Shown: one piece after another, positions 5,327 to 25,835 of the stretch | How positions within the stretch are numbered: position 1 is the stretch's first letter | How the letters are laid out: each line of letters begins with the position of its first letter | Assembly (NCBI GenBank): GCA_045863195.1 | Contig: BTUI01000007.1 | Location: 50,327 to 114,326, forward strand | Origin: Chloroflexota bacterium | GTDB taxonomy: Bacteria > Chloroflexota > Dehalococcoidia > UBA2979 | Direction: 5' to 3' | DNA: 64,000 nucleotides | The notes under the pieces: model-generated | Seen by the model: the letters and a program-made list of their open reading frames with translations, nothing else | The model's database searches: none | Told to the model about the DNA's origin: nothing | Program-made: the position numbers and the translations under genes

Positions 5327-5541
5327 CCGCGTCACGACGTCGCCCGCCAGCACACCCAGGCGCGAGAGTTCGCGCCTGCCTCTCAGACGCCGGGGCCGGC
5401 CGCACGGTTCCCGGGAATCCCCCGAGCATACGCCGCGCACCGTGACCTACTCCGCAACTGTGCGCGCGTGCACGAAGTTTACAAACGTAATCGACCTCGC
5501 GAGGATGGCACTGAACCGCTCGGAGTGCGCGGGGGTGAGAG

Positions 5542-9224: not shown

Positions 9225-9547
9225 CCCCCGGCGCGGGTGCCGGACAGCGTGCCGCGGCCGAAGACGCCGAACCCGATTTCGCCCGTAATCGCGTCCCCGC
9301 GCACCTCTGCAGAGAAGGTCAGCGGCAGTTCGCCGCCGGGCGTCACCAGGGGTGCAGCCCACTGCAGGATCTCCGCGCCGTCGCGGGACTCCACCGTCCC
9401 ACCCTCGAACTCCTGGGAGGCCAGCGGGCCGACCCAGGTCCCCGCCAGGGCAGTGCCAGACGTCCTGAAAGTAAATGTGCCGTCGCGCGGCCCAATCGGT
9501 GTGCTCAACGTGACATTCCACGTACCATCGGCGAGCACTGGCGGCAC
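9221..9547 (-). CDS. hypothetical protein (108 aa, Gly/Thr-rich, probably beta-rich)
   Basis: GTG start with an AGGA-type SD. Protein-like composition (..[47 protein letters not shown]..). G/C-ending codons. Its stop overlaps the response-regulator stop (CTAG). No family recognised. Confidence 0.55.
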
Positions 9548-9597
9548 CCCTCTTCCTCGCCGCCATCATAGGCGTCGATTCGGACGGATGGACGGCC

Positions 9598-10148: not shown

Positions 10149-11531
10149 GTGGCCGCAGGCCGCTCGTCCGGCTCTGGCTCCTCTGGCGTCATCGGACGCA
10201 CCTTCGCGTCGCTACGCGTGCGGGACTACGCGTGGTTCTCCGCCGGGAACGCGGCCTTCTTCCTCGCCATGCAAATGAACTTCACGCTGCGTGGCTACCT
10301 GGCGTACGAACTGACCGGCGCTGCCTCCGCGCTCGGCATCCTCGCGCTGTCACTCGCGATGCCCATGCTGTTCGCCGGCCCGTTCGGTGGCGTGATCGCG
10401 GACCGCGTGAACAAGCGCACGCTGCTGATCGTCGTGCAGATCGGCGTCGCCGCGAACAACGGCACGATGGCGCTCCTGATCCTCACCGGGGTCGTGGAAT
10501 TCTGGCATCTCGCTGCCGCCGCGATGGTGATGGGGCTGTTCTTCGCGGTCATCACCCCGGCGCGTCAGGCCATGGTGCCGCAACTCGTGCCACAGCAGTT
10601 GATGATGAACGCAATCTCGCTCCAGATGAGCGGCCAGAACCTCACCCGGATCGTGGGCCCGGCGGTGGCCGGTCTGCTGATCGCACCAATGGGCGTGGGC
10701 AACGTCTATCTCGTCACCGTTGCCCTGTTCATCCTGTCCGTGATCACGATGTTCCCGCTGCCGAAGCACGGCATGGTCTCGATCCAGCACGGCCAGCGGC
10801 GCAACGTGGGCGAGGAACTGGTCAGCGGCCTCGCGTTCGTCTGGAAGACGCCGCTCTACCGCATCCTGCTGATCATGGCGCTGGTCATGCCGCTGTTCGC
10901 CTTCCCGGTGAACCAGATCCTGCCGGTGTTCGCGGAAGACGTGTTCGAGCGCGGCCCGACTGCCCTGGGCATCCTCATGTCCGTGTCGGGCGTGGGCGGC
11001 CTCGTCGGCGCGCTCTTCGCCGCCGGCATCTCCGACTACCCGCACAAGGGGTGGCTGCAGATCGTCGGCGCCATCGCCATGCTGCTCTGCTTCATCGCGT
11101 TCGCGGTGACGCCGTCGTTCTACCCGGCGCTCGTGTTCCTCGCGCTCGGCAACATCGGCTCGATGATCTTCCAGGTCACTAACAACGCCGTGATCCAGGC
11201 GCAGGTGCCGGACGAGTATCGCGGTCGCGTGATGGCGGTGCTGATGATGTCGTTCGGCACCATGCCCCTCGGCGTGCTGCCGCTGACCTTCGCCGCGGAC
11301 CGCTGGGGCGCCCCGCTCGCGGTCGTCGCTGCGCAGATCATCGGCCTCGCGGTCGTGCTGCTGACCGTGGTCTTCAGCCCCAGCGTCCGCAACCTGCGCA
11401 TCAGCAACCTGGACGAGGCGGAGCTGTCGCCCGCCCAGGCCGCGAAACTGGTCGCCGAGGGCAAGATCACGCGCGAGGAAGCCGCACGCCTCAGCGGCCG
11501 CGCCGGCGGCACGGCGCGCGCCCCGCACTAG
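10149..11531 (+). CDS. MFS transporter
   Basis: 460 aa with a multi-TM hydrophobic profile. MFS motif-A-like GGVIADRVNKRTLL. AGGAGG SD before the GTG start. Confidence 0.85.
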   Translation: MAAGRSSGSGSSGVIGRTFASLRVRDYAWFSAGNAAFFLAMQMNFTLRGYLAYELTGAASALGILALSLAMPMLFAGPFGGVIADRVNKRTLLIVVQIGVAANNGTMALLILTGVVEFWHLAAAAMVMGLFFAVITPARQAMVPQLVPQQLMMNAISLQMSGQNLTRIVGPAVAGLLIAPMGVGNVYLVTVALFILSVITMFPLPKHGMVSIQHGQRRNVGEELVSGLAFVWKTPLYRILLIMALVMPLFAFPVNQILPVFAEDVFERGPTALGILMSVSGVGGLVGALFAAGISDYPHKGWLQIVGAIAMLLCFIAFAVTPSFYPALVFLALGNIGSMIFQVTNNAVIQAQVPDEYRGRVMAVLMMSFGTMPLGVLPLTFAADRWGAPLAVVAAQIIGLAVVLLTVVFSPSVRNLRISNLDEAELSPAQAAKLVAEGKITREEAARLSGRAGGTARAPH

Positions 11532-12490
11532 CGGACGCGCGGACGCCCCGCCCTCGGGTCCAGCGCGTCGCGCAGGCCGTCGCCCACATACTGCGTGCAG
11601 AGAAACAGCACCCCGAGGATCGCGGTGGGGATCGCCAGCGCCGTCCACTGCACCATCACGAACTGGAAGTGGTCGTTCACCAGCACGCCGAGGCTCGCGC
11701 CCGGCGGGGTCACGCCCAGCCCGATGAACGACAGCGCCGCCTCCGCGAAGATCGCCCGCGGCGCCATGAACGTCGCCTCCACGATCACAGGCCCTGCCGC
11801 GTGCGGCAGCCAGTGGCGGAGCGCGATCCTCGACCGCGACGCGCCGAGGGAGACCGCGGCGAGCGAAAACTCCGTCTCCCGGACCGCCAGCAGCTGGCCG
11901 CGCACGAGCCGCGCCATCGTCGGCCAGCCGGTGAGGCCGATCGCGAGGAACAGCAGCCACACACCGGCATCGAGGCCGAGCAGGTGCTGCTGGCCGAGCA
12001 GCGTCTCGCCCATCGCCGCGCGCAGGAGGATGATCAGCAGCAGGTCTGGCAGCGCGTAGGCCATGTCCGTGCCGCGCATCAGCAGCGCGTCCAGCCACCC
12101 GGGGCCGCTCGCGGCGAGCGCGCCGACGGCGATTCCGATCGTCCCTGCGACGAGGATCGCGAACGCCGCCGCCAGCAACGAGACCCGCAGTCCGGACAGC
12201 GTGCGGCTGTAGATGTCTCGCGCCAGCTGGTCGGTGCCGAAGAGGTGTTCCCCGCTCGGCGGCAGGAACTTCCCCGTCTCCCGGGGCGCCATCGGGTCCA
12301 GCACGCCGCCGGACGGCGCGGCGAGGTACTGGCGCGTCGGGTCGTGCGTCATCAGCAGCGGAGCGAACAGCGCGGCCAGCACGAGCAGGCCGAGGATCGC
12401 CGCGCTGCCGGCCGCCATCCGGTTCGACCGGAACCGCGCCCAGGCGCGCACGCCCGCGCCATCCTCCGCGCGCGGAACGTCGGCGATCAT
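11528..12490 (-). CDS. ABC transporter permease (peptide/nickel type, DppC/OppC-like)
   Basis: Start reset to ATG 12490, which overlaps the stop of the upstream permease (ATGA). The track's 476-aa version carries an Arg/Gly-rich false N-terminal extension. N-terminus ..FRSNRMAAGSAAILGLLVLAALFAPLL.. and the BPD-transporter core (..SLGASRSRIALRHWLPHAAGPVIV..). Confidence 0.85.
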   Translation of the reverse strand: MIADVPRAEDGAGVRAWARFRSNRMAAGSAAILGLLVLAALFAPLLMTHDPTRQYLAAPSGGVLDPMAPRETGKFLPPSGEHLFGTDQLARDIYSRTLSGLRVSLLAAAFAILVAGTIGIAVGALAASGPGWLDALLMRGTDMAYALPDLLLIILLRAAMGETLLGQQHLLGLDAGVWLLFLAIGLTGWPTMARLVRGQLLAVRETEFSLAAVSLGASRSRIALRHWLPHAAGPVIVEATFMAPRAIFAEAALSFIGLGVTPPGASLGVLVNDHFQFVMVQWTALAIPTAILGVLFLCTQYVGDGLRDALDPRAGRPRVR

Positions 12491-13434
12491 CGGAGCGTCA
12501 CCCGCGGGTCGATCAGCGGATACAGCAGGTCGACGACCAGGTTGGCGGCCATGATCACCGCGCCGTAGAACAGCGTGGTGCCCATGATCACCCCGTAGTC
12601 GCGCGCCACCACCGAGGTGATGAACGCGGACCCGATGCCGGGCACCCCGAAGATCGCCTCGATGATGATCGAACCGGTCACCAGGCTCGCGAACACCGGC
12701 CCCAGCACCGTCACCACGGGCACGAGCGCGTTCCGCAGCGCGTGGCGCAGGTACACGCCGCGCCAGCCGAGGCCCTTCGCGCGCGCCGTGCGGATGTAGT
12801 CCTGCTCCAGCACCTCCAGCATCGCCGCGCGCGTGATCCTCGACACGATCGCCATGCCGGGAGCACCGAGCGCGATCGCGGGGAGAATGCCGGCACGCAG
12901 CGACCCGATCCCCGTGCCGAAGCGCGTGCCGGCGAGCACGTCCGTCCAACCGAGCCACACTGAGAAGATCAGGAGCAACACGAACGCCAGCACGAACGCC
13001 GGCACCGCCGCCAGCGCCGTCGCGAGCGCGAGCGCAGCCGCGTCCACGACGCCACCTCGACGCACCGCCGCCAGCACCCCGAGTGGGATGCCGGCCGCGA
13101 CGACGATCGCGAACGACATCAGCCCGAGGATGAGTGACGGGCGCATCTTCGCGGCCATGAGGTTCGTGACGGGCTGACCCTGCTGCGCGAACGAGATGCC
13201 GAGGTCGCCCTGCACCAGGTGGCCGAGGTAGCGGACGAACTGAAGCGGCAACGGGTCATCCAGCCCGTAGTACGCGCGCTGCGCCTCGATCACCGCAGGA
13301 GGGAGCGGGCGATCGACGGAGGCGGCATCGAAGGGCCCGCCGGGGACGCGGTGCATCAGCAGGAAGGTCACAGCCGCCAGCACCAGCAGCGTCGCCGCTG
13401 TCCACGTCAGCCGCCGGGCGAGGTAGCGCGCCAT
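12487..13434 (-). CDS. ABC transporter permease (DppB/OppB-like)
   Basis: N-terminus MARYLARRLTWTAATLLVLAAVTFLLM. Permease core ..DYIRTARAKGLGWRGVYLRHALRNALVPVVT.. Confidence 0.9.
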   Translation of the reverse strand: MARYLARRLTWTAATLLVLAAVTFLLMHRVPGGPFDAASVDRPLPPAVIEAQRAYYGLDDPLPLQFVRYLGHLVQGDLGISFAQQGQPVTNLMAAKMRPSLILGLMSFAIVVAAGIPLGVLAAVRRGGVVDAAALALATALAAVPAFVLAFVLLLIFSVWLGWTDVLAGTRFGTGIGSLRAGILPAIALGAPGMAIVSRITRAAMLEVLEQDYIRTARAKGLGWRGVYLRHALRNALVPVVTVLGPVFASLVTGSIIIEAIFGVPGIGSAFITSVVARDYGVIMGTTLFYGAVIMAANLVVDLLYPLIDPRVTLR

Positions 13435-13493
13435 GGGGAGAGCCTACCCCCGCCGGGCCGTGCGAGACGGCCCGGCGGGGGCGCCCAGTCTGA

Positions 13494-15266
13494 CTATTGC
13501 GCCCGCCCGGAGATGACCACCCGGTCGAAGAAGAGATCCCCGGGGATCTCGCCTTCCATCGAAGACGGCACCAGGCCCGTCACCCACGGCTTCACGAGCG
13601 CGTTGCGGCGGCCGTAGTAGAGCGGCGTGAACGGCGCGTCCGCAATCAGGATGCGCTGCGCGTCCAGGTACTGCTGGATCCGCCGGTCGTTGTCCAGTTC
13701 CTGCTCCGCCGCGTCCAGGAGCGCATCGAACTCCGGGTTGCTGTAGGCGCCGGAGTTGAACGCGCCACCCGCCTCGAAGAGCGGGAGCCAGTTCTGCGGG
13801 TCGGGGTAGTCCGCCCCCCAGCCGCTGATCACCACGGAGTAGTTCCCGGCGGTCCGGTCGGCCACGTAGGTCGCCGTGTCGCGCGTCACCACATTCACCG
13901 TGATGCCCAGGTTGCGCTGCCACTGTTCCTGCAGCCACTGGGTGGTCTGGTTCGCCGTCGTCGTGTCCACCGACAGGATCGTGACGGTCAGCCCGGCACC
14001 GCCGGGATAGCCCGCCTCCGCCAGCAGCCTCCGCGACGCCTCGAGGGCGTCACGGTAGGCGGCGCCGACCTCCGGGTCGTGGCCAGGCATCCCCGGCGGC
14101 ACCCAGCCGTACGCCGGCAGCACCGCGCCCTCGCGCACGATCTCGGCGTACTCCTGGCGGTCGAAGCCGCCCGCGAGCGCCTGTCGCACGTGCACGTCCG
14201 CCAGCATCGGGTCGTTGAGGTTGAAGAACAGCCCCACGGTGCTCAACTGCGCATATGCGATGAACTGCTCGCGCAGCGGGATGTCGTCGCGCACCTGCAC
14301 CAGTTCGGCCGCGCCGAGGGTCACGATGTCCAGTTCGGAGTTCTTGTAGGCGAGGAAGGTCACCGCGTTCTCGCTCACCATCGAGAACTGCACGGACTGC
14401 AGCGTGACCGGGGCGCCGTGCCAGTGCTCGTTCCGCACGAGTTCGACGCGCTCGCCGTGATCCCACGCGGCGAGGCGGAACGGGCCGTTCGAGACGTGGC
14501 TGCCCGCCTCCGTCCAGAGCGCACCGTTCGCGTCGATCAGGTCCTGCCGCACGGGGTAGAGCGGCCACATCGTGGCGAGCTGCAGGAAGACCGGCGTGCG
14601 TGTGGAGAGTTCGAACACGACCGTGCGGTCGTCCGGCGCCGTCACCCGCAGCGCCGGCCCCACGAGGGCCTCCAGCGCCAGCAGTTCCTCGCCGGTCACG
14701 CCCGCACGGCGCGCTGCCCGAACCGCCTGGTTTGCGTCGCCGTCCGGCCCGGGTGCCGCGATCACGCGGTAGAAGTCCGCGTAGTAGGAGGCCGCCCCCG
14801 GCTCGAAGATGCGCTTCGCCGCATCGACGAATGCCTGTGCCGCCAGCGGCGAGCCGTCTGACCACTTCAGCCCCTCGCGGAGCCGGAAGGTGTAGGTCAG
14901 GCCGTCCTCGGAGATGCCACCGTTGGCGACGGTCGGAACCTCCTGTGCCAGGTCGGGCAGCACCTGCAGGTCCGGGCCCACGCGGAGCAGGCCAGAGTAG
15001 ATGTTCTGAAGGATGGTGTTGGAGACGGAGTCCGTTGCGCGCTGCGGGTCGAGCGTGGGCGGCTCGCCCGGCAGGTTCACCCGCAGTGTCTGGTTCGCGT
15101 CCGGCACCGCTGCCGTGGCAGTGGCAGTGGCGGTCGCGTCAAGGCTCGCGGTGGCGGTCGGTGTCGGATCGTCGTCACCGCCCGGACTGCAGGCAGCGAG
15201 GATCAGCGACAGGAAGAACGGCGCGAGCACCAGCCGGCGCATCACACCGCGGATCGGCAGACTCAT
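13494..15266 (-). CDS. ABC transporter substrate-binding lipoprotein, family 5 (peptide/nickel)
   Basis: Lipobox LILAAC followed by a Thr/Ala/Asp linker. SBP_bac_5-like body (..IYSGLLRV.., ..LKWSDGSPL.., ..WGADYPDPQNWL..). Confidence 0.88.
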   Translation of the reverse strand: MSLPIRGVMRRLVLAPFFLSLILAACSPGGDDDPTPTATASLDATATATATAAVPDANQTLRVNLPGEPPTLDPQRATDSVSNTILQNIYSGLLRVGPDLQVLPDLAQEVPTVANGGISEDGLTYTFRLREGLKWSDGSPLAAQAFVDAAKRIFEPGAASYYADFYRVIAAPGPDGDANQAVRAARRAGVTGEELLALEALVGPALRVTAPDDRTVVFELSTRTPVFLQLATMWPLYPVRQDLIDANGALWTEAGSHVSNGPFRLAAWDHGERVELVRNEHWHGAPVTLQSVQFSMVSENAVTFLAYKNSELDIVTLGAAELVQVRDDIPLREQFIAYAQLSTVGLFFNLNDPMLADVHVRQALAGGFDRQEYAEIVREGAVLPAYGWVPPGMPGHDPEVGAAYRDALEASRRLLAEAGYPGGAGLTVTILSVDTTTANQTTQWLQEQWQRNLGITVNVVTRDTATYVADRTAGNYSVVISGWGADYPDPQNWLPLFEAGGAFNSGAYSNPEFDALLDAAEQELDNDRRIQQYLDAQRILIADAPFTPLYYGRRNALVKPWVTGLVPSSMEGEIPGDLFFDRVVISGRAQ

Positions 15267-16629: not shown

Positions 16630-18165
16630 ATGACCGACACCTTCACGATCGCCCTCGAGCCGCTGCCCGGCCGCCCCGTCATCGCCCCCATCGGGACGGG
16701 CGCGCGGGTGCTGCTGGTCTCCACGTACGAACTCGGGCACCAGCCGCTCGGCCTCGCCTGGCCCGCCGCCGCGCTCCGCGCCGCCGGGCACGACGTCCGC
16801 ACGCTGGATGTCGCCGTGGAGCCTCTGGAGGCGGGCGCGTTCCGTGGCGTCGACCTCGTCGCTATCTCGATCCCGATGCACACGGCCGCCCGCCTGGGCA
16901 TGGAGGTCGCCCGCGCGGCACGGAAGATCAACCCGGCCGCCCGCATCGCGTTCTACGGGCTGTACGCCTCGCCGCTGTACGCGCACCTCACCGCCGAGGG
17001 CCTCGGCGACGTCGTCATCGGCGGCGAGTACGAGGACGGCCTGGTGGCGCTGGCTGGCCGGATCGCCGCGGGCGACACGTCCGTCGACGTGGCCGGCGCG
17101 GGCGCCACGCCTTCGCTCGCGCGCCGCCGGCATCCCGTGCCGGACCGCCGCGGGCTGCCCGCGCTCGACCGCTACGCCAGCGTCCGCCGCCGCGACGGGG
17201 AGCATCCCGCCGGCTACGTGGAGGCGACCCGTGGCTGCGCTCACCGCTGCACCCACTGCCCGATCACGCCCGTGTACGGCGGTGCGCTGCGCCTCGTCCC
17301 GGCCGAGACGGTGCTCGCCGACGCGGCCCAGCAGATCGAGGCCGGCGCGCGGCACATCACCTTCGGCGACCCGGACTTCCTCAACGCCGTCCCGCACTCG
17401 ATGGCGATCGTGGAGGAGTTCCACCGCCGCTGGCCGGAGATCACGTACGACGTCACGGTGAAGGTGGAGCACTTCCTGGAGCACCCGGAGGTGTTCCCGC
17501 GGCTGCGCGAGACCGGCTGCCTCTGGGTCACCTCCGCGTTCGAGTCCTGCAACGACCGCACGCTCGGCCTGCTCGAGAAGGGGCACACGCGCGCGGACAT
17601 GGAGGCGGCGCTCCGCATCGCGGACGGCGCGGGGCTTCCGGTGCGTCCCACCTGGGTGGCCTTCACCCCGTGGACCACGCTCGATGACCTTGTGGACATG
17701 GTCGAGTTCGTCGCGGAGCACGGCCTCCAGCGTCACGTCCAGCCGGTGCAGTACACGCTGCGTCTGCTGCTGCCGCCGGGCTCGCCGCTGAACGGCGTGC
17801 TGGAAGCGCAGGGGCTCCTCGGGCCGTTCGATGCGGAGCACCTCACCTACACCTGGGCAAACCCCGACCCCCGCGTGGATACGCTCCAGGCGGAACTCGC
17901 GGCGCTCGTGGAAGCCGCCGCGATCCCCGCGACCGGCGAGGAGTGCGACGAGGACGGTGTCTGCGCCGTCCCCGGCTCGATCGAGGACATCGTCGAGACG
18001 TTCGAGAAGGTGCGGACGGCCGTGTATGCCGCCGCCGAGCGCACGCGCCCGCCTCGGGGACTCGTCCCGCTGCGCTTCGTCCCGTCGCTCACGGAGGCCT
18101 GGTACTGCTGTGCGGAGCCGACCGAGCAGCAACTGCGGCTGACCGAGGTCGCGACCGGCATCTAG
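16630..18165 (+). CDS. B12-binding-domain radical SAM protein with C-terminal CCAEP tail
   Basis: N-terminal cobalamin-binding-like domain (VLLVSTYELGHQPLGLAWPAAALRAAGHDV..). Radical-SAM cluster motif CAHRCTHC (CxxxCxxC). C-terminal ..EAWYCCAEPTEQQL, encoded TGC TGT (Cys-Cys, no TGA). Confidence 0.85.
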   Translation: MTDTFTIALEPLPGRPVIAPIGTGARVLLVSTYELGHQPLGLAWPAAALRAAGHDVRTLDVAVEPLEAGAFRGVDLVAISIPMHTAARLGMEVARAARKINPAARIAFYGLYASPLYAHLTAEGLGDVVIGGEYEDGLVALAGRIAAGDTSVDVAGAGATPSLARRRHPVPDRRGLPALDRYASVRRRDGEHPAGYVEATRGCAHRCTHCPITPVYGGALRLVPAETVLADAAQQIEAGARHITFGDPDFLNAVPHSMAIVEEFHRRWPEITYDVTVKVEHFLEHPEVFPRLRETGCLWVTSAFESCNDRTLGLLEKGHTRADMEAALRIADGAGLPVRPTWVAFTPWTTLDDLVDMVEFVAEHGLQRHVQPVQYTLRLLLPPGSPLNGVLEAQGLLGPFDAEHLTYTWANPDPRVDTLQAELAALVEAAAIPATGEECDEDGVCAVPGSIEDIVETFEKVRTAVYAAAERTRPPRGLVPLRFVPSLTEAWYCCAEPTEQQLRLTEVATGI

Positions 18166-18774: not shown

Positions 18775-19317
18775 CTACCCGCCGGCCACCTCGGCGCGCT
18801 CGCGGCGCACCACCTCGATCGAGTCGAGTACGTACTGTTCCGCGACGCCGCGCGGCTCCCACCCGAGCGTGGTGACCTCCGCGCCTTCCAGGTCCTTGTA
18901 GATGCGGAAGAAGTGCTCCACCTCGCGCAGGAAGTGCGGCGAGACGTGGGGCAGCTCCTGCACCTCCGCGTAGCGGGGGTCGCGGGTCGCGACGCACAGG
19001 ACCTTCTCGTCGTCGCCCTTTTCGTCGCGCATCCGCAGCATGCCCACCGGGCGCACCTCGATCAGCGCGCCGGTGTGGGATTCGAAGTTGCCCCACACCA
19101 GCACGTCCACGGGGTCGCCGTCACCCGCGCGGGTGCTGGGGACGAAGCCGTAGTGGCCCGGGTAATGCACGGAGGAGTACAGGACGCGGTCGAGGCGGAA
19201 GAGGCCGAGCGCGGTGTCGTACTCGTACTTCGCCTGCCCGCCGCGCGGGATCTCGACGATCGCGTTCAGCCGCTTCGGCGGCGTGGCCCCGGGGGGAAGG
19301 TGATACAGGTCGGTCAA
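18775..19317 (-). CDS. ppa: inorganic pyrophosphatase (family I)
   Basis: Motifs ..NAIVEIPRGGQAKYEYD.., ..YPGHYGFVPST..GDGDPVDVLV... TTG start with GAGGAG SD 7 nt upstream. Confidence 0.93.
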   Translation of the reverse strand: MTDLYHLPPGATPPKRLNAIVEIPRGGQAKYEYDTALGLFRLDRVLYSSVHYPGHYGFVPSTRAGDGDPVDVLVWGNFESHTGALIEVRPVGMLRMRDEKGDDEKVLCVATRDPRYAEVQELPHVSPHFLREVEHFFRIYKDLEGAEVTTLGWEPRGVAEQYVLDSIEVVRRERAEVAGG

Positions 19318-19393
19318 CGGAAGGCTCCTCGTGGAGACGCGGCGCGCCCGGCGGGCGCGACCGATCCATGGTGCGCCGGGTGAGGGTTGCGTG

Positions 19394-20461
19394 CTACGCC
19401 GTGTGGTCCGCCGCGCTCGGCCGGAGCGACGCCCGGCGGCGCTGCACGTCCACCGCCGCCTTCACGGCCGCGGCCGCGAGGCGCGCCTCCGCGAAGGCGG
19501 AGGGGGTCCGGCCAAGCACCAGCGCGTCCGGGGGAGCATCGCCCCGCGCGCGGACCAGCGCCTGGATCTCCTGAACCGCCGCCACCAGCCGCCGGCTCGC
19601 CTCCAGCCCCACGGGACGCGCCTGCCGGTTGTAGCGGTCGAGCGCCTCCACGGCTGAGACCGCCGGGCTCACCTCCCGGAGGATCTCGATGCCTTCCTCA
19701 GCAAGCCGCTCGTGGAACATCGTCAGGTCGCGCCGGTAGCGAAGCGTCCACGCCTCCGCCTCCCCCAGCGCCGCGTCGAAGTCGCGCGGCGCGAGGAAGA
19801 ACCGCACGAGGTCCAGGCGTGGCCGCAGCACCTCGCGCGCCTCGACGAGCGAGCGGTGGGCGCCGGCATCCGGGGCGACCGCCGCGTCCAGGCAGCGCGT
19901 CACGATCTCGAGCGCACGACCGGCGCCGGCGTCACGCAGCCGCTCGGCCAGCACGTCGTGTGCGAAGGCGGCAGCGTCCGGCCAGTGGATCCGGAGGCGG
20001 CGGTCGAACCCGTCGCGCCCCTCCTCCGCAATGTCCCCGAGGAGCCCCGGGCGGTCGCGCAGGAACCCGACGAGCGATTCGCGGGAGTGTGGGCCGGCCT
20101 CGCAGGGTGGATGGGGCGGACACAGCGCCTGGAACCCGGCGGCGATGAACGCCTCCGGCGGATCGCCGGGCGTCCGGAAGTACGGGGAATGCGGCCAGGC
20201 ATGGGCGACCGCGGACGAGACCGCTGCGGCATCCATGGAGGTGTCGGCGATGGCGACCCACGCCGGGAGATGGGCGGGAGGCGCCTCGCCCGGCCGCACG
20301 AGGAGCAGGCGGACATCTGCGAGGATGACGTCCGGAGGGGCGGTCAGCCCCTCGCGCCACTCGGCGGAGGCGTGGATCTCGGCGGCGTAGTACGTGCCGA
20401 AGGGGTCGCGGAAGTACGCGACCCGGGGCGAGGTCGGGGGCCAGGAGAGTACCGGGGGCAC
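19394..20461 (-). CDS. hypothetical protein (~355 aa), no recognisable domain
   Basis: Start reset to GTG 20461 (GGAG 5 nt upstream), because the track version overlaps the preceding HDOD gene. Protein-like sequence (..AYFRDPFGTYYAAEIHASAEWREG.., ..FLRDRPGLLGDIAEEGRDGFDRRLRIHWPD.., ..AWTLRYRRDLTMFHERLAEEGIEILREV..). Confidence 0.6.
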   Translation of the reverse strand: MPPVLSWPPTSPRVAYFRDPFGTYYAAEIHASAEWREGLTAPPDVILADVRLLLVRPGEAPPAHLPAWVAIADTSMDAAAVSSAVAHAWPHSPYFRTPGDPPEAFIAAGFQALCPPHPPCEAGPHSRESLVGFLRDRPGLLGDIAEEGRDGFDRRLRIHWPDAAAFAHDVLAERLRDAGAGRALEIVTRCLDAAVAPDAGAHRSLVEAREVLRPRLDLVRFFLAPRDFDAALGEAEAWTLRYRRDLTMFHERLAEEGIEILREVSPAVSAVEALDRYNRQARPVGLEASRRLVAAVQEIQALVRARGDAPPDALVLGRTPSAFAEARLAAAAVKAAVDVQRRRASLRPSAADHTA

Positions 20462-20504
20462 TCGCGCTCCGATCCGACCGGTCGATACCGGCGAAGCCCC
20501 TGCG

Positions 20505-21365
20505 TCAGGAGCCCGCCGTGTGGATGAACACCGCCGCCCGCTGCGACAGGCCGTCCAGCCCACCACCCTGCTCGAGCAGCAAGGCCAGGGGCGAGACGGT
20601 CCATTCAACAGCGGGGGCGGCGAGGGCGGGCTCTTCCAGGCCATCCGTCAGGCCGTGGGCATGTGCGAAGTCGCGCGCCCGGATCACCAGCCCGGCCAGG
20701 CTGTCGCGACTCTCCAGCGCGTCCAGCGGCTGCTGGTGGGTGGCGACGGCCTGCGCCAGGCTCGACGGAAAGTTCCAGCGCCGGGCCAGCGCGCCGCCGA
20801 CCTCTGCGTCCGTGAAGCCGAGGAGGGCACGTTCCGCTTCCGGCAGCGTGATGCCCTCCTGCCGCGCCAGCACCACGCAGCGGCGGAGGTCATCCGGCCG
20901 CGCCTGATCCAGCGCCAGCCGGCCCACGTTGTGGAGGACACCGGCCGTGAACGCCTCGTCGGCGTGGCAGCGGCCGCTCTTCGCCAGCGTCTCCGCGAGC
21001 AGCCCCACGGTCAGCGAGAAGCGCCAGAACGCATCGTGCTGGATGACGCGCCCTCGCGGCATCGTCTCAAGGACGCACGCGGCGAGGGTCGCCGAGCGGA
21101 TGGCGCGGAAGCCCAGCAGCACCACGGCGTCGCGCACGGTGCTGATCCGGCGCGGGAACCCGTAGTACGCGGAGTTCGCGAGGTGGAGGACGGTGGCCGT
21201 GAGTGCGGGGTCGGAGGAGATCGCCTGGGCCAGCTCATGGGCGGAAAAGTGCTCGCTCTCAACGATCGCGAGCACCCGTGCGGCAACCGGCGGGAGTGGC
21301 CGTAGATCGGCGATCTCCCCGACCAGCACATCGAGCGGTGCGTCAATGACGCCTCGCTCCGACAT
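20505..21365 (-). CDS. HDOD domain-containing signalling protein
   Basis: HDOD signature (LPPVAARVLAIVESEHFSAHELAQAISSDPALTATVLHLANSAYYGFPRRISTVRDAVVLLG.., AGVLHNVGRLAL, LGFTDAEVGGALARRWNFP). Start set at ATG 21365; there is no obvious SD, and the TTG at 21458 is an alternative. Confidence 0.8.
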   Translation of the reverse strand: MSERGVIDAPLDVLVGEIADLRPLPPVAARVLAIVESEHFSAHELAQAISSDPALTATVLHLANSAYYGFPRRISTVRDAVVLLGFRAIRSATLAACVLETMPRGRVIQHDAFWRFSLTVGLLAETLAKSGRCHADEAFTAGVLHNVGRLALDQARPDDLRRCVVLARQEGITLPEAERALLGFTDAEVGGALARRWNFPSSLAQAVATHQQPLDALESRDSLAGLVIRARDFAHAHGLTDGLEEPALAAPAVEWTVSPLALLLEQGGGLDGLSQRAAVFIHTAGS

Positions 21366-21472
21366 GGGAGGAAATGACCAGGAAGCCGTACGGGAGGGGT
21401 CCGACGGCTCCCCGGTCGAACACGATCGACGTAAGGCGACGTCGAATCGTTGCTGCAAGTGAGGCTCCTGGG

Positions 21473-21574
21473 CTACCAGGGGAAGATGACTTCAGCGAGG
21501 GCCGACGTGCCGGTCGCGATGAACGCGGCGGCGACGAAGGCGGAGGCGACGGTGGTGGTGATGAAGCGGCGCAT
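21473..21574 (-). CDS. 33-aa signal-peptide-like pro-peptide (MRRFITTTVASAFVAAAFIATGTSALAEVIFPW)
   Basis: ATG 21574, TAG 21473. GGGAG SD 6 nt upstream. 31 of 33 codons end in G/C. Own promoter-like region and an upstream terminator. The track lists only an upstream-extended 66-aa form. Confidence 0.55.
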   Translation of the reverse strand: MRRFITTTVASAFVAAAFIATGTSALAEVIFPW

Positions 21575-21637
21575 GGCGTACTCCCGAGATCGTGTGCCGC
21601 GATGGGAATCGGCGGCCGGTCTGCACTTGACATGCGG

Positions 21638-21672
21638 ACAGTACGGAGCAGCCTCTGACCAACCTCTGACCA
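21638..21672 (-). promoter_or_regulatory. candidate activator-dependent promoter: 2 x TGGTCAGAGG direct repeats at 11-bp period, 8 nt upstream of TACTGT
   Basis: Minus strand reads TGGTCAGAGG-T-TGGTCAGAGG-CTGCTCCG-TACTGT. On the plus strand the repeats are cctctgacca at 21652-21661 and 21663-21672. It lies ~65-100 nt upstream of the mini-ORF ATG. Confidence 0.45.
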
Positions 21673-21677
21673 CGGGC

Positions 21678-21713
21678 TAAAGAAAGCCGTCAGAAGCCCG
21701 ACTTTTCTGACGG
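21678..21713 (-). terminator. rho-independent-type terminator after the STAND/SARP regulator gene
   Basis: 9-bp stem (plus strand ccgtcagaa 21687-21695 / ttctgacgg 21705-21713) with a 9-nt loop. On the minus strand it is followed by CTTTCTTT. It sits 50 nt after the regulator stop. Confidence 0.55.
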
Positions 21714-21762
21714 TTCTGTAGATTTAGCAAGATTTCGAGGGCGAGGGCCCGCAGGCGCGGGG

Positions 21763-24700
21763 TCAGTCGACCGGATCGTCCAGCGCTTCACCGGACAGCA
21801 CCCGGTTGTAGAGCGACCGGACGCGCGCCGAGGGCGTCCCGCCCACCTCGTCCCGCATGGCGTCGTGGAGACGCCGGTACGCCCGCGCGGCCAGGTCCAG
21901 GTTGCCCCGGTGGACGTGCCCCTGCATCACCCGGATGGCGGCGTCCTCGTTCAGGGGGTCCACGGCCAGGACGGACTCCGCCATCCGGATCGCCTCCGCC
22001 GCGTCGCCCCGCCGGAGGGCGGCGGAGGCGAGGGCCACCGTGTTGGAGAGGTACATGTCCTCGTATCTCTGACGGGCGGCCTCCACCCAGTCAGACTCGA
22101 ACCCGGAGGCGAACGACCCCGCGTACAGCTGGATGACCTTCGACACGCCGGAGGCCCACTCCTCGCTCCCGCGTGGGGCCGCCTCTGCCTGCTGCAGCCC
22201 CTTCTCGAACTCGGCGGCGTCGTACCAGATGTCGAAGTCCGGGTTCACCTGGTAGCCACCGCCCGACTGCACCACCACCTGCGGGTGGATCGCCTTTCGC
22301 AGCCGGTACAGCGTGGTGTGGAACTGGCTGTTCAGTTGCTTGGGGCTGACGTCCGGCCAGAGCTCGACGGCGATCTCCTCCTTGCGCAGCGGCCGTCCGC
22401 GGTGCAGGAGGTAGAAGAACAGTTCCTTGCTCCGCTCCGACCGCCACTCCATGTCCGCGATCAGCCGCCCGTCCACGCTCACCCGAGGCGCACCGAACGC
22501 CTCCGCCCGGATCCGGAATGCCGCCGGCAGTTCCGCATCGTGCTCGCCGGCCTCGGACGGGCGGACGCGGCTCGCCAGCGTGCGGAAATAGTCGCCGCCC
22601 ACGCGGCGCGCCGCGGCGTACTCGACGACTTCCAGGTTCTGGCGCGCCTCCGCGAGCAGGAACTGGTCGTAGCCCAGCGCCTCCGTCAGCGCGTACACGC
22701 GCTCTAGATGCTCCATCGCCGGCTGCCGGTGACGGGTGTGGAACAGCGACGAGCCGAGGAGGAGCAGGGCGAGCGCCTGTTCCCGACGCGCGCCGCCGTC
22801 CTCCGCCGCGGCCGCGGCCGCCTCCAGCACCGGGATGGCGTCCTGGTGGGCCTGCTCCGAGCACATCGTCGCGGCCGCGCCGATCCGGAAGCGCGTCTGC
22901 ATCAGCATCGCGCCGGTCTGCTCCGCAGACCGGAGGCCGTGGTCGAGCAGCGCCCGGGCGCGCGAGAACTCGCCGCGCTCCCGGTAGCACATCGCCAGTC
23001 CGTAGGTCGCCGCGAGGATGAGCGCGGGGTCGTCGATCTCCTGCGCCTCGTGGATCGCCACGGTGTAGAGGGTGATCGCGTTGTCGAGCCGCCCGAGGTC
23101 GCGCTCGACGTTGGCGAGGCCCTCCTTGCCGTACGCCTCGTACCGGTGGTGGCCGATGCGGCTGGCGCGCTCCACGACGCCCTCGAACGTGTCGCGGGCG
23201 GTCTCCAGTTCGCCCAGCATGTGCTGGACGTTGCCCATGTTGTTCATGGTGGCGATCTGCGCCTGCGGCTCCGCGAGCATGCGCCAGCGGCGCTGCGCGG
23301 AGGTGTACTCCGCCATTGCCACGGCCAGGTCCCCGGCCAGGTACAGGACGTTGCCCAGCATGTCCCGCGCCTCCGCGGTGCTGTGCTGGTTGCGCTGCTC
23401 CTCGAACCGGAGCGCCGCCTGCTCGATGCGCTCTCGCGCGGCCGGCAACTGCCCGTACCGGGCGAGGGCGACCCCCTCCTCGAAGTCGATCTCCGCGTAG
23501 ACGGGGTGGTCGTCGTCCAGGTGCTCCAGCGCCGCCTGGCGGGCGCGGCGGCAGCCCTCGACGGCCTCGGGGATGCGCCCCATCTCGCGGAACGCGACGC
23601 CGCGATACAGCAGCGTCCGGACGCGCTGCTCCGGCTCCAGCGGGTGCGTCTCGATCCGGTCCAGGCGCGTCAGACACTCCTGCCGGTGGCCGAACTTCGC
23701 CGCGAGGCGTGCGCGCACCAGTCCGAGGTCGATCTCCTGGTCGATGACCTCCTCCGGCAGCCGGTCGATCCACCCAGCCAGCGTGCGCCATTCGCCGCGC
23801 TGGTACAGGGTGTCGCGCGTGTCGTACAGCTCGCGCACGACCTCCGACCAGTCGCCGGCCTCGATCGACAGGTTCACCGCCTCCACCAGCATCCCGCGGC
23901 GGCTGCAGATCGCCGCCGCCTGACGCCGGAGGTCGGTCGCCCGCTGCCGCTGCTCCCGCTCCAGCCGGGCAAGGAGGTGCTCCCGGATCAGCGCGTGCAT
24001 CCGGTACCACTCGCCGTCACCGGCGTCGTCGCCGAGGCGCGTGAGGAAGCGGTTCGTCTGCGCCAGTTCGTGGAGCGCGGGCCCCGCCTGCTCGTTCCGC
24101 GTCAGCGACTGCGCGAACTCCAGGTCGAACGTGGGCAGGACGGAGCAGGCGGTCAGCACCTCCATCTGAAGCGGCGTCAGCCGTTCCAGCACCTCCTGGT
24201 CAATGAACTGGCCGAGGATGAACTCGAACTCGCCGTGCATCCCTCGGTCGGGGTCGTAATGGTCGACCATCACGGCCAGCGCCGCGGCCCAGCCGTCCGC
24301 CCGGCGGATCAACTCGGCCCGGTGGTCGGGCCCCACCTTCGACTGGTCGAGGAACCGCGCCGCCTCCTCCGCCGTGAAGATGAGGTCGCGCGCCCCCAGC
24401 GAGTAGGCGCGCCGCTGCGCCGTGAGCCGCGCGAGCGACCCGAGCGATGGCCACGTCCGCGACAGGATCATCAGCCGCATGTTCATCGGCACCGAGCGCA
24501 CGAGCGTGTCGACGACGGCGAGCGCCTCCGGCGAGTCGTCCAGGAAGTGCAGGTCGTCCAGGACAAGGACGAAGAGGTCGTCCACTTCCTGCTGGATGGC
24601 GGCCGACAGTTCGGAGACCAGTGCCCCGGCGCCAGCCGGCACGCCGCCGGCCTCCAACCGCTCCATGAATTCGGCAAGCGCCTCCGGGAACGCCTGCCGC

Positions 24701-25002
24701 ACGGCACCGGCCAGGTCCGCCACCAGCGCGAGCGGGTCCGCGTCCTGCGCATCGAGGGAAAGCCACGCCACCTTCAGCGCGGCGGCACTGGCCCAGTCCA
24801 CGGCCAGCGTGGACTTGCCGTAGCCAGCGGGCGCCGTCAGGAGCGTGACGTCGTACTCGAGCGCCTCATCGAGGAGCGCGTGGAGGCGGTCGCGTCGGAC
24901 GGTGTCCGCGCGGCGGCGCGGCGGCACCAGTTTGGGCAGGAACTGCCGTCGTGGTCGCCGCGGTGGGGGCAGGTCAGGGCGGCTGACCGCAGGCCACGTC
25001 AC
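21763..25002 (-). CDS. large STAND-type transcriptional regulator: P-loop NTPase + TPR/SUPR sensor + C-terminal SARP module (OmpR-type wHTH + BTAD)
   Basis: MalT-like N-terminus (..LPKLVPPRRRADTVRRDRLHALLDEA..LLTAPAGYGKSTLAV.. Walker A; LFVLVLDDLHFL Walker B). A long TPR-like region follows. C-terminus: ..RVSVDGRLIADMEWRSERSKELFFYLLHRGRPLRKEEIAVELWP..TTLYRLRKAI (wHTH), then ..YDAAEFEKGL..LYAGSFASGFESDWVEAARQRYEDMYL..AIRMAESVLAVDPLNEDAAIRVMQGHVHRGNLDLAARAYRRLHDAMRDEVGGTPS (BTAD). Start set at GTG 25002. The track's 1291-aa form runs antisense through the neighbouring gene. Confidence 0.85.
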   Translation of the reverse strand: MTWPAVSRPDLPPPRRPRRQFLPKLVPPRRRADTVRRDRLHALLDEALEYDVTLLTAPAGYGKSTLAVDWASAAALKVAWLSLDAQDADPLALVADLAGAVRQAFPEALAEFMERLEAGGVPAGAGALVSELSAAIQQEVDDLFVLVLDDLHFLDDSPEALAVVDTLVRSVPMNMRLMILSRTWPSLGSLARLTAQRRAYSLGARDLIFTAEEAARFLDQSKVGPDHRAELIRRADGWAAALAVMVDHYDPDRGMHGEFEFILGQFIDQEVLERLTPLQMEVLTACSVLPTFDLEFAQSLTRNEQAGPALHELAQTNRFLTRLGDDAGDGEWYRMHALIREHLLARLEREQRQRATDLRRQAAAICSRRGMLVEAVNLSIEAGDWSEVVRELYDTRDTLYQRGEWRTLAGWIDRLPEEVIDQEIDLGLVRARLAAKFGHRQECLTRLDRIETHPLEPEQRVRTLLYRGVAFREMGRIPEAVEGCRRARQAALEHLDDDHPVYAEIDFEEGVALARYGQLPAARERIEQAALRFEEQRNQHSTAEARDMLGNVLYLAGDLAVAMAEYTSAQRRWRMLAEPQAQIATMNNMGNVQHMLGELETARDTFEGVVERASRIGHHRYEAYGKEGLANVERDLGRLDNAITLYTVAIHEAQEIDDPALILAATYGLAMCYRERGEFSRARALLDHGLRSAEQTGAMLMQTRFRIGAAATMCSEQAHQDAIPVLEAAAAAAEDGGARREQALALLLLGSSLFHTRHRQPAMEHLERVYALTEALGYDQFLLAEARQNLEVVEYAAARRVGGDYFRTLASRVRPSEAGEHDAELPAAFRIRAEAFGAPRVSVDGRLIADMEWRSERSKELFFYLLHRGRPLRKEEIAVELWPDVSPKQLNSQFHTTLYRLRKAIHPQVVVQSGGGYQVNPDFDIWYDAAEFEKGLQQAEAAPRGSEEWASGVSKVIQLYAGSFASGFESDWVEAARQRYEDMYLSNTVALASAALRRGDAAEAIRMAESVLAVDPLNEDAAIRVMQGHVHRGNLDLAARAYRRLHDAMRDEVGGTPSARVRSLYNRVLSGEALDDPVD

Positions 25003-25096
25003 CCGGTGATGATAGACCTGCGCGAGGCGGCTGCGGTGGCACGCTCCCCTCGATACGCTGGAAGTCAGACTCCCGCCGAACCAGAAGGACGCACGC

Positions 25097-25735
25097 ATGG
25101 CCTTCGCCGTGGACGACGAACTCGCCTTTCTCCGCACGTACGAGTCGACCACGCTCACCAAGCCACAGGTCGTCGCGGACAACGTCCTCACCGGCATCTT
25201 CCTCGCGGACTCCCGGCACCGGGCAGCCCTCGCCGCGCTGCTCCTGCAGGAGGCGGTCGAGGCGGCGCGACGGCTGGCGGCGGTGTGGGACGCACTGGCG
25301 CACCGGTCGCGCTCGGTCGCGGAGGCGCTGGCCGGGCCGCTCCCCAACGCCACGGTGTGGGAGGCGCTCGCCGGCGCCGTCACCGGCCTCGAGGACCCGC
25401 GCGAGGTGCTGCGCCTGATCCAGGTGGACGAGAGCGCGCTGGAGAGCGCGGAGGAGATGCTGGAGTTCGCCGGGCTGGACTGGTTCAGCGCCGCGATCCG
25501 CACGTTCGAGGCGGGCCCGCCGGCCCTCACGCTGGAGCCGGGCGAGCCCGGAAGCCCCGGCGTGGTCGCGTTGCGGGGGGTGGGCACGGATGGCTCGCCG
25601 CGCGAGACGCGGGTGCGGCTGGAGGACGACCGCATCATCGCCCTGGGCGACGCGACCGGTGACTTCGTGACGTGGTCGCGGGACTTCCTCGGCGCCTACA
25701 TGGACGCTCGCGAGGCGGCGGCGCAGAGGCGATAG
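25097..25735 (+). CDS. hypothetical acidic protein (212 aa)
   Basis: AGAAGGA SD 7 nt upstream of the ATG. Protein-like, Glu/Leu/Ala-rich, without Arg bias (MAFAVDDELAFLRTYESTTLTKPQVVADNVLTGIFLADS...). Divergent from the regulator. No family recognised. Confidence 0.65.
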   Translation: MAFAVDDELAFLRTYESTTLTKPQVVADNVLTGIFLADSRHRAALAALLLQEAVEAARRLAAVWDALAHRSRSVAEALAGPLPNATVWEALAGAVTGLEDPREVLRLIQVDESALESAEEMLEFAGLDWFSAAIRTFEAGPPALTLEPGEPGSPGVVALRGVGTDGSPRETRVRLEDDRIIALGDATGDFVTWSRDFLGAYMDAREAAAQRR

Positions 25736-25835
25736 GCAGGCGCCTACCGGCGCAGAGGCGATAGGCAGGCGCCTACCGGCGCAGGGGCGATAGGCAGGCG
25801 CCTACCAGCGCAGGGCCGCTGTCGGCGCCTAGCGG
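25721..25835. repeat. 29-bp tandem repeat: 2 identical copies, 1 copy with 2 mismatches, 1 degenerate copy
   Basis: Unit gcgcagaggcgataggcaggcgcctaccg at 25721-25749 and 25750-25778 (identical) and 25779-25807 (2 mismatches); degenerate copy at 25808-25835. Each unit contains TAGGC-AGGC-GCCTA (5-bp stem). The first copy includes the stop of the 25097-25735 gene. The last overlaps the stop of the convergent methyltransferase gene. Confidence 0.9.

Follow-up and report, generated by a model that had tools for sequence, protein, structure and literature searches.

The 64-kb window analysed here (the whole stretch of 64,000 nucleotides, from a Chloroflexota bacterium of the Dehalococcoidia) has a G+C content of 72% and carries on its minus strand a compact cassette in which the gene of a large regulator is followed by the gene of a 33-residue pro-peptide, a gene for an HDOD-domain protein and a gene for a protein of 355 aa. 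As judged from sequence comparison, the cassette is an undescribed regulator-propeptide module whose candidate receptor combines STAND, TPR and SARP domains, and it is part of a family that is widespread in Chloroflexota. The regulator, a two-repeat activator box and the pro-peptide gene appear to form its functional core, and the HDOD and 355-aa proteins appear to be cargo placed under the same promoter in one Dehalococcoidia subclade. The best explanation of this arrangement is a self-activating peptide-signalling module, to which a probability of about 0.5 is given; it looks like a possible undescribed system of cell-to-cell signalling by peptides outside the Firmicutes. When the window sequence was re-checked, all the genes and sites listed in an earlier note on this DNA were found where that note had placed them. 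The elements of the cassette, in the order of transcription, are as follows.

21763 to 25002, minus strand: regulator and candidate receptor, 1079 aa (Pfam, NCBIfam and PDB relatives)
21720 to 21735, minus strand: direct repeat AAATCT-N4-AAATCT, past the stop codon of the regulator and ahead of the terminator hairpin (conserved across loci)
21678 to 21713, minus strand: terminator-like hairpin of the regulator gene, CCGUCAGAA...UUCUGACGG then CUUUCUUU (terminator scan and fold energy)
21652 to 21672, minus strand: SARP-type activator box, two 11-bp direct repeats TGGTCAGAGGT TGGTCAGAGG forming a 22-bp unit in place of the -35 element (repeat scan)
21638 to 21643, minus strand: -10-like hexamer TACTGT (read from the sequence)
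21585 to 21581, minus strand: Shine-Dalgarno sequence GGGAG, 6 nt before the ATG of the pro-peptide gene
21473 to 21574, minus strand: pro-peptide gene, 33 aa, MRRFITTTVASAFVAAAFIATGTSALAEVIFPW (open reading frame and conservation)
21376 to 21450, minus strand: structured RNA leader with hairpin 1 (7 bp), GC-rich hairpin 2 (12-14 bp) and a U/C-rich tract (covariation)
20505 to 21365, minus strand: HDOD-domain protein, 286 aa, cargo or output gene of the subclade (Pfam)
19394 to 20461, minus strand: 355-aa protein ("U355") with a small N-terminal beta domain and a long helical bundle (AlphaFold2 model)

The regulator is predicted to consist of a MalT-type STAND NTPase (residues ~24-450), a TPR sensor (~450-830) and a SARP module made up of a winged helix and a BTAD domain (~830-1075). 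The Pfam matches are AAA_16, TPR_MalT (E 2e-15), TPR_12 (E 1e-20) and BTAD (E 5e-18). Residues 24-451 match the NCBIfam model of MalT with an E-value of 8e-64, yet under its equivalog cut-off, and residues 861-1072 match that of AfsR. The nearest solved structures are those of MalT (8bob, E 6.5e-30), the SARP domain of AfsR (8hvr, E 2.6e-9) and EmbR (2fez), the latter two aligning to residues 830-1075. A Walker A motif (APAGYGKST) and a Walker B motif (VLVLDD) are both present, and the sequence has no hydrophobic segment, so the protein is expected to be cytoplasmic. Pfam gives no match to GerE, the LuxR-type helix-turn-helix, in the regulator, whose C-terminus is the SARP module, and PF00196 is carried by remoter homologues from the same protein search. 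In effect, the regulator appears to be a MalT whose LuxR-type DNA-binding domain is swapped for a SARP domain. No protein of RRNPPA, the family of Firmicute peptide receptors, is among its PDB or NCBIfam matches. About 45 clusters of regulators were found at 54% identity or more, and the named ones all belong to metagenome-assembled genomes (MAGs) of Chloroflexi or Dehalococcoidia, bar one that is labelled Phycisphaerales; the nearest relatives of the window as a whole are likewise MAGs labelled Dehalococcoidia or Chloroflexi. Conservation within the regulator is highest in the winged-helix block (residues 851-900).

The peptide gene follows the regulator on the same strand after a gap of 188 nt, and this adjacency holds in every locus that has a peptide gene. 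Within the gap, the stem of the terminator-like hairpin lies at 21713-21687 and is followed by the tail CUUUCUUU, with a fold energy of -13.1 kcal/mol (z -2.4); in other loci a hairpin of differing sequence occupies the same position as the regulator terminator. The activator box lies next, and its repeat TGGTCAGAGGT TGGTCAGAGG is the single match in the window, with 0 expected by chance. The box is kept in every locus, its variants including TGGTAAGAGG, TGGCGAGAGG and GGCGATAGC. The hexamer TACTGT starts 8 bp past the heptamer core TCAGAGG of the downstream repeat, other loci have a conserved TAnnnT at the same spacing, and the box together with the -10 region is the best-conserved part of an otherwise divergent intergenic stretch. 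The targets of SARP regulators are direct repeats spaced 11 or 22 bp apart, with the 3' repeat placed 8 bp from the -10 element (PMC10936776). The box follows this rule in its 11-bp period, in the 8 bp between its downstream core and a TAnnnT -10 element and in having no -35 element. No sigma-70-type consensus -35/-10 pair occurs in 19200-25800, which fits an activator-dependent promoter. The direct-repeat promoter proposed in the earlier note is borne out by the conservation of the repeats across loci and by their SARP geometry.

A strict scan for the box, in which one genome per species was searched for 185,579 species, adds the specificity of the site to this picture. The box occurs once per Dehalococcoidia genome, with 10 matches, 9 of which are at a peptide-gene promoter; five of these nine had already been part of the earlier alignments. 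The tenth match, on a short contig (L036), has the -10-like hexamer and no obvious small open reading frame (ORF) downstream. Other taxa gave only 5 matches, which are chance-like. Related GGCGAGA repeats are found upstream of the small ORFs of regulators down to 26-49% identity. The conservation and SARP geometry of the box, the specificity of the scan and the conserved winged-helix block together make it well supported, at the level of sequence, that the regulator activates the box promoter. Autoregulation of the regulator's own promoter through the box was considered and rejected, as no second site in the paired arrangement was found at that promoter or elsewhere in the window at up to 1 mismatch. 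The other direct repeat of this region, AAATCT-N4-AAATCT, matches once in the window against 0.02 expected and recurs beside the box in one related locus (L027) and, inverted, in another (L029). It could be a site for a second regulator or an antisense -10 element.

The 33-aa ORF is the sole ORF of its type on both strands of the window. Its product has a signal-peptide-like segment in residues 1-27, with an MRR N-terminus, a hydrophobic core and A25-L-A27, followed by the hexapeptide EVIFPW (21493-21476) and the stop codon. The hydrophobic core spans ~20 aa with a Kyte-Doolittle maximum of 1.81, and the MRR start and the A25-x-A27 site were recognised by inspection. The GGGAG Shine-Dalgarno sequence is conserved across loci, and the ORF is 32-33 aa long in the ~15 full-cassette loci and 32-38 aa long across related Dehalococcoidia-type loci. 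Among 14 distinct nucleotide versions of the ORF, M1, R2, R3, A16, A25, A27 and W33 are unchanged, the alanines A16, A25 and A27 are each encoded by 3-4 synonymous codons, and changes at third codon positions exceed those at second positions about 2-fold (1031 versus 510). Because of these invariant residues, the synonymous codons and the third-position excess, the small ORF is best regarded as a translated gene under protein-level selection. Conservation sits at the A-x-A site and the C-terminal hexapeptide and the hydrophobic core varies freely, a pattern of constraint such as would be expected for the precursor of a secreted peptide. The hexapeptide variants of the full-cassette loci are EVI[FWY]PW, EMILPW, GV[VI]WPW, EVIWGW, GMIWGL and EMAWAE. 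No Pfam or NCBIfam model covers the small peptides, and their database copies are unnamed or annotated as "hypothetical protein".

The full-cassette loci were gathered from contigs encoding homologues of the 355-aa protein and from pattern- and profile-based scans. In all of the ~15 distinct loci the order is regulator, small ORF, HDOD gene and 355-aa gene. The claim of the earlier note that these four genes form one cassette stands as far as their co-conserved order is concerned. It does not stand for the functional unit, since regulators at 43-56% identity keep the trio of regulator, box and peptide gene among other neighbours and have neither HDOD nor 355-aa gene. The division into core and cargo is drawn from this recurrence. 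In these other contexts the trio again comprises a two-repeat box, the same distance to TAnnnT and a small ORF with a signal-peptide-like N-terminus. The four such loci, with the end of the small ORF and a bar at the presumed cleavage site, are listed below.

L027: regulator 56% identical, small ORF ending in ...AAFA|EVIWGS
L028: regulator 55% identical, small ORF ending in ...SALA|GGMWGT
L029: small ORF ending in ...PALA|EVVWHG
L032: regulator 43% identical, small ORF ending in ...AALA|ECEWTC

One of these trio-only loci, L028, also has a gene for an EAL-HDOD protein (4506-5696) ~1.3 kb upstream of the regulator, another neighbour of HD/c-di-GMP type.

Three rearranged loci give further information on how the parts hold together. 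In L119 the whole cassette is kept and the downstream flanks differ. At 9330-9590, after the stop codon of the regulator and before the box, this locus also has a ~130-nt GC-rich element in two direct copies (...cgtccgccgggagtgtgaggggcgcagctcctcacgacatcct...), which look like a small repeat or an insertion of the kind of a miniature inverted-repeat transposable element and leave the box and the peptide gene intact. In L026 (3127-3942) residues 17-97 from the N-terminus of the regulator run in frame into residues 177-344, the C-terminal half of the 355-aa protein. A single block was lost, comprising the peptide gene, the HDOD gene, half of the 355-aa gene and most of the regulator, and the SpoU gene and the gene for the acidic 212-aa protein were kept. 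In L020 (1-1841) the regulator is inverted and divergent from the HDOD gene, and a box (TTGGCGAGAGG TTGGCGAGAGC) with a leader resembling hairpin 2 stands directly before HDOD, which ties the box to the HDOD gene.

The 107 nt between the peptide gene and the HDOD gene are more than a gap; they are strongly conserved and contain a two-hairpin RNA that begins 23 nt past the stop codon of the peptide gene. RNAalifold, applied to the leader alignment, gave 21 pairs, 8 of them with compensatory changes. In the alignment, 95.6% of the cells are paired, against 41-47% (~45%) with slid partners, and 28 cells have double changes against 10.4 in shuffles, the observed value being reached in 0 of 500 shuffles. 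The fold energy of the leader in the window is -45.3 kcal/mol (z -5.8). In the whole window no match to an Rfam family reaches the gathering threshold, and those in 21250-21850 are at chance level (E of 1 or more). The open frame in this stretch is continuous with that of HDOD, and an N-terminal extension of the HDOD protein (from a TTG at 21458, open in most loci) was considered and rejected as the main explanation of the conservation. Three observations speak against it: the differences between the window and L002 in the leader region are not concentrated at third codon positions, several of the paired changes are non-synonymous on both sides with base pairing kept, and in L020 the frame closes with a TGA ahead of the HDOD start. 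Because its GC-rich stem of 12-14 bp is followed by a U/C-rich tract, the leader is probably a leaky terminator or attenuator. A leaky element of this kind is a candidate means by which transcripts of the peptide gene would be held in excess of those of the cargo.

The two cargo proteins differ in how well they can be placed. The HDOD domain matches PF08668 with an E-value of 2e-56 over profile positions 2-196 of 196, and the protein is 50-95% identical among syntenic loci. A second HDOD-like paralogue is encoded in the window at 7653-8354 on the plus strand, with 32% identity to the cassette protein over 242 aa. The 355-aa protein has no Pfam or NCBIfam match, and 24 homologues (41-90% identity) were found among 5.8 billion clustered proteins, all the named ones from Chloroflexi or Dehalococcoidia MAGs. 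Within full cassettes it diverges down to 34% identity. A single-sequence search of genome contigs gave no homologue, whereas homologues were found in the protein database and by a metagenome scan based on an alignment. The motif C114-P-P-H-P-P-C120 is invariant and could bind a metal. The AlphaFold2 model has a predicted local distance difference test score (pLDDT) of 90.8, and a fold search of the PDB with this model gave no match (best E 0.4). Neither the HDOD nor the 355-aa protein has a predicted membrane segment. In one locus (L019) a homologue of the 355-aa protein occurs without HDOD, beside a putative nucleoside diphosphate kinase gene (ndk, assigned by eye), with a partial duplication of its N-terminus just upstream.

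A profile of the regulator extended the family beyond the Dehalococcoidia. It retrieved 579 relatives, ~50 of which are full-length proteins with a nucleotide-oligomerisation domain (NOD, the STAND module), TPR repeats and SARP module at 22-49% identity; these full-length relatives are from Anaerolineae, Chloroflexia, Ktedonobacteria and Dehalococcoidia. The scan of their surroundings looked for small ORFs that start with ATG and encode a basic N-terminus, at least 14 hydrophobic residues in one stretch and a short tail. Within 700 nt downstream and on the same strand, such an ORF was found in 25 of 48 loci (regulators of 22-36% identity). The controls gave none, with 0/48 for the opposite strand downstream and 0/50 for each of the same and the opposite strand in the 700 nt upstream. 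The peptide gene is tandemly duplicated in several of the distant loci, and recurrent endings of the peptides are ...L(G/A)AGAP-x4-20 or ...AAQSP(F/L)(F/L/I). Two cultured species, Anaerolinea thermolimosa (L062) and Thermanaerothrix daxensis (L084), have paralogues of the regulator, with no obvious small peptide ORF in either.

The genes that follow the small peptide gene are also recurrent in the distant loci. In 10 of 10 loci tested the next gene encodes DUF5317 (PF17248, E 1e-17 to 1e-36), a protein of ~170-250 aa that was recognised in six more loci by a home-built profile, and in 9 of the 10 an HD_5 protein of HD-GYP type, often with a GAF domain, comes after it. With home-built profiles, 27 loci had DUF5317 or HD_5 on the same strand downstream, and one further locus had an upstream match on the opposite strand. 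The order in the distant loci (L043-L096) is regulator, at least one small peptide gene, DUF5317 and HD_5, as in L059 (5836-7834), L061 (5971-8198) and L066 (5874-7815). DUF5317, of which no mention was found in the literature searched, may be a partner for the processing or export of the peptide. As an HDOD protein occurs here and HD-GYP proteins in 9 of 10 distant loci, an HD-superfamily protein downstream of the regulator-peptide pair appears to be an old association, of which the HDOD protein of the window would be the local form.

Taken together, the link between promoter and regulator and the genetic coupling of the components are supported by the comparative evidence, and a self-activating module would work as follows. 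The box promoter, just downstream of the regulator's terminator, would drive the 33-aa gene, and in the subclade the transcript could run on through the two-hairpin leader into the HDOD and 355-aa genes. The pre-peptide would leave the cytoplasm by the Sec pathway, and signal peptidase I would cut it after A27, freeing EVIFPW, which would build up outside the cell. By analogy with known peptide systems, EVIFPW would then return to the cell, for instance through an importer of Opp type, bind the TPR sensor of the regulator and relieve its autoinhibition. The STAND module would oligomerise with ATP as MalT does, and two SARP domains, side by side on the two repeats, would recruit RNA polymerase as AfsR does. 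The outcome would be positive feedback on the peptide gene together with induced HDOD and 355-aa output. HD-GYP proteins stand at the corresponding position in the distant relatives, which makes cyclic-dinucleotide signalling or a lifestyle switch the probable output. A wider form of the proposal may be put forward more tentatively and with more doubt than trust, namely that a class of peptide signalling spans the phylum Chloroflexota and arose independently of Firmicute RRNPPA. In it, a STAND/SARP receptor would sense a re-imported oligopeptide encoded downstream, autoinduce the peptide gene and switch on HD-GYP or HDOD proteins and cyclic-dinucleotide signalling, with DUF5317 processing or exporting the peptide in most lineages.

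Several observations weigh against self-activation by the peptide. The L020 locus keeps box and HDOD, and no peptide gene is seen on its 2.8-kb contig; the locus may stem from a non-producer, or its peptide gene may have moved elsewhere. The peptides of Anaerolineae type end in ...AGAP plus a tail, and the proline at position +1 leaves no signal peptidase I site; processing must therefore differ there. The Opp-like cluster of the window has no adjacent ATPase and is linked to the cassette by general synteny alone. Peptide and regulator diverge in parallel, yet shared ancestry alone would give that. The TPR region is no more variable than the remaining regulator, unlike that of many receptors that diversify with their pherotypes, and in AfsR there is a precedent for a SARP/STAND/TPR regulator whose small neighbouring target gene does not supply its ligand. 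The last two points also favour the main and serious rival, a one-way arrangement modelled on AfsR and afsS. The regulator would then sense another cue (a metabolite, phosphorylation or a partner protein) through its NOD and TPR parts, and the hexapeptide would be output only, without feedback, acting as a signal for a different receptor or as an extracellular effector. AfsR, itself composed of SARP, NOD and TPR, activates the adjacent afsS through a 22-bp two-repeat box overlapping the -35 position (PMC10936776), and the promoter logic here is alike. However, the peptide gene is the sole conserved neighbour of the regulator in L027, L028, L029 and L032, which is the classic receptor-propeptide signature of RRNPP systems (PMC10075063). 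AfsS has 63 aa, whereas the product here starts like a signal peptide and ends in a tail of six residues, and the neighbourhood has no other conserved candidate receptor, for instance a histidine kinase. This one-way arrangement is regarded as somewhat unlikely.

The remaining alternatives turn on what the small ORF does locally. Its product might stay uncleaved as a 33-aa single-pass membrane protein that anchors or modulates the HDOD and 355-aa proteins, or DUF5317 and HD-GYP proteins in the distant relatives. The single hydrophobic helix of the distant small peptides, the DUF5317 gene that follows them in all ten loci tested and the ...AGAP motif all agree with such a role, and it is likelier in the AGAP-type relatives than in the clade of the window. 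Here it would be quite improbable, since the conserved parts are the A-x-A site and the hexapeptide, with the core free to vary, since the four trio-only loci have no downstream partner gene and since no membrane segment is predicted in either the HDOD or the 355-aa protein. A functionless peptide whose translation steers the hairpins, so that the ORF serves as a cis-acting leader for attenuation of HDOD, would account for a covariation-supported RNA so close behind the stop codon. It is contradicted by the retention of the peptide gene in the same four loci, where no downstream gene exists, by selection on the amino-acid sequence with its constant length and C-terminal motif, and by L020, which keeps the leader without the ORF; as a full explanation it has very little probability left. 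Nor is mere synteny within a narrow lineage, without any functional link, easily credible, even though the flanks of the HDOD-type loci (SpoU, inorganic pyrophosphatase, a major facilitator superfamily transporter and Opp-like genes) are conserved too. The trio is found again among other neighbours, L119 has the cassette with other downstream flanks, L026 lost it as a single unit, and the family-wide association of 25/48 stands against 0 in the controls; the data contradict pure synteny as they do pure attenuation.

The module resembles the RRNPPA and AfsR/AfsS systems in the way it would work and belongs to neither family. The RRNPPA signature is a Sec-secreted pro-peptide of 10-100 aa next to a TPR receptor of 250-500 aa (PMC10075063). 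Four of the five features of this signature are present or plausible here, among them a pro-peptide of 33 aa, TPR repeats in the receptor and receptor and pro-peptide genes that are direct neighbours; the receptor, with 1079 aa, lies outside the size range (PMC10075063). As in Rap/Phr, NprR/NprX, PlcR/PapR, Rgg/SHP, ComR/ComS and AimR/AimP, a cytoplasmic TPR receptor adjoins a small pro-peptide gene, the presumed active part is a short C-terminal peptide (5-8 residues in those systems), the peptide variants differ by lineage, and the receptor is a transcription factor that would act on the pro-peptide promoter with autoinduction. The differences are considerable. The regulator is not homologous to the HTH-TPR receptors; its kin are MalT, AfsR and EmbR, it has a STAND ATPase domain and a SARP DNA-binding module, and it belongs to Chloroflexota, not Firmicutes. 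In addition, the signal peptidase cut alone would yield the hexapeptide, with no further exoprotease step needed.

MalT is the model STAND transcription activator. The MalT of E. coli shares with the regulator a homologous N-terminal NOD (NCBIfam MalT E 8e-64; 8bob E 6.5e-30) and the same order of NOD, winged-helix arm, helical-repeat sensor and C-terminal DNA-binding domain, and by analogy the regulator would be driven by ligand and ATP to oligomerise and to bind repeated boxes. It differs in its output domain (LuxR-type helix-turn-helix in MalT, SARP here) and in its ligand (maltotriose as against the proposed peptide), and the adjacent target here is a pro-peptide gene. AfsS is cytoplasmic, a 63-aa protein and not a hexapeptide precursor that bears a signal peptide. 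The AfsR/AfsS pair of Streptomyces is alike in its regulator with SARP, NOD (STAND) and TPR parts, in its adjacent small ORF as a target and in the two 11-bp direct repeats over the -35 position at the canonical distance to a weak -10 element (PMC10936776). AfsR has the order SARP-NOD-TPR, in contrast to NOD (24-450)-TPR-SARP (830-1075) here, and is controlled by phosphorylation. Literature searches on SARP, STAND, TPR, peptide signalling and Chloroflexi turned up only the Firmicute RRNPPA work and the AfsR structure paper. In agreement with the earlier note, no description of a system of this composition was found in the literature searched. Nor is there a curated family for the small peptides in Pfam or NCBIfam or for the leader in Rfam.

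Other genes of the window that were linked to the cassette or lie near it are the following.

25097 to 25735, plus strand: acidic protein of 212 aa, isoelectric point 4.55, divergent from the regulator (no Pfam or NCBIfam match)
11528 to 15266: Opp-like cluster of a binding protein and two permeases, with no adjacent ATPase
16630 to 18165, plus strand: B12-binding radical SAM protein

The earlier note had named the first two alongside the system. The 212-aa gene is present in HDOD-type loci only, is absent from L027, L028, L029 and L032 and is retained in L026 despite deletion of the cassette; it is syntenic and lies outside the core, and its membership in the system is not supported. As a dedicated importer the Opp-like cluster was rejected: nothing beyond general synteny within the subclade ties it to the cassette, it lacks an adjacent ATPase and it is absent near L027-L029. 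The radical SAM protein matches NCBIfam NF040546, "CUAEP/CCAEP-tail radical SAM (seleno)protein", with 572.7 bits against a cut-off of 500, ends in ...AWYCCAEPTEQQ... and is unrelated to the cassette. A link between it and the small peptide as a ribosomally synthesised and post-translationally modified peptide was considered and rejected, the protein being of this CUAEP/CCAEP-tail type and its gene being absent from several cassette loci.

Quorum sensing by peptides with a cytoplasmic receptor counts as a trait of the Firmicutes, and the tools for detecting it are limited to that phylum and to receptors of 250-500 aa. If the proposed mechanism is true, the principle extends to another phylum and to a non-homologous, ATP-dependent class of receptors. 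It would also hint at a class of ligands for the TPR sensor of large SARP and MalT-like regulators, of which we know of no ligand even for AfsR, and would tie peptide sensing to HD-GYP and HDOD proteins and to cyclic-dinucleotide signalling. Tests would be easy in so small a system, which calls for a single regulator, a 22-bp box and a synthetic hexapeptide. Chloroflexota help to structure the flocs and granules of wastewater reactors and abound in sediments and in the subsurface, and a density-sensing switch would matter in all of these settings.

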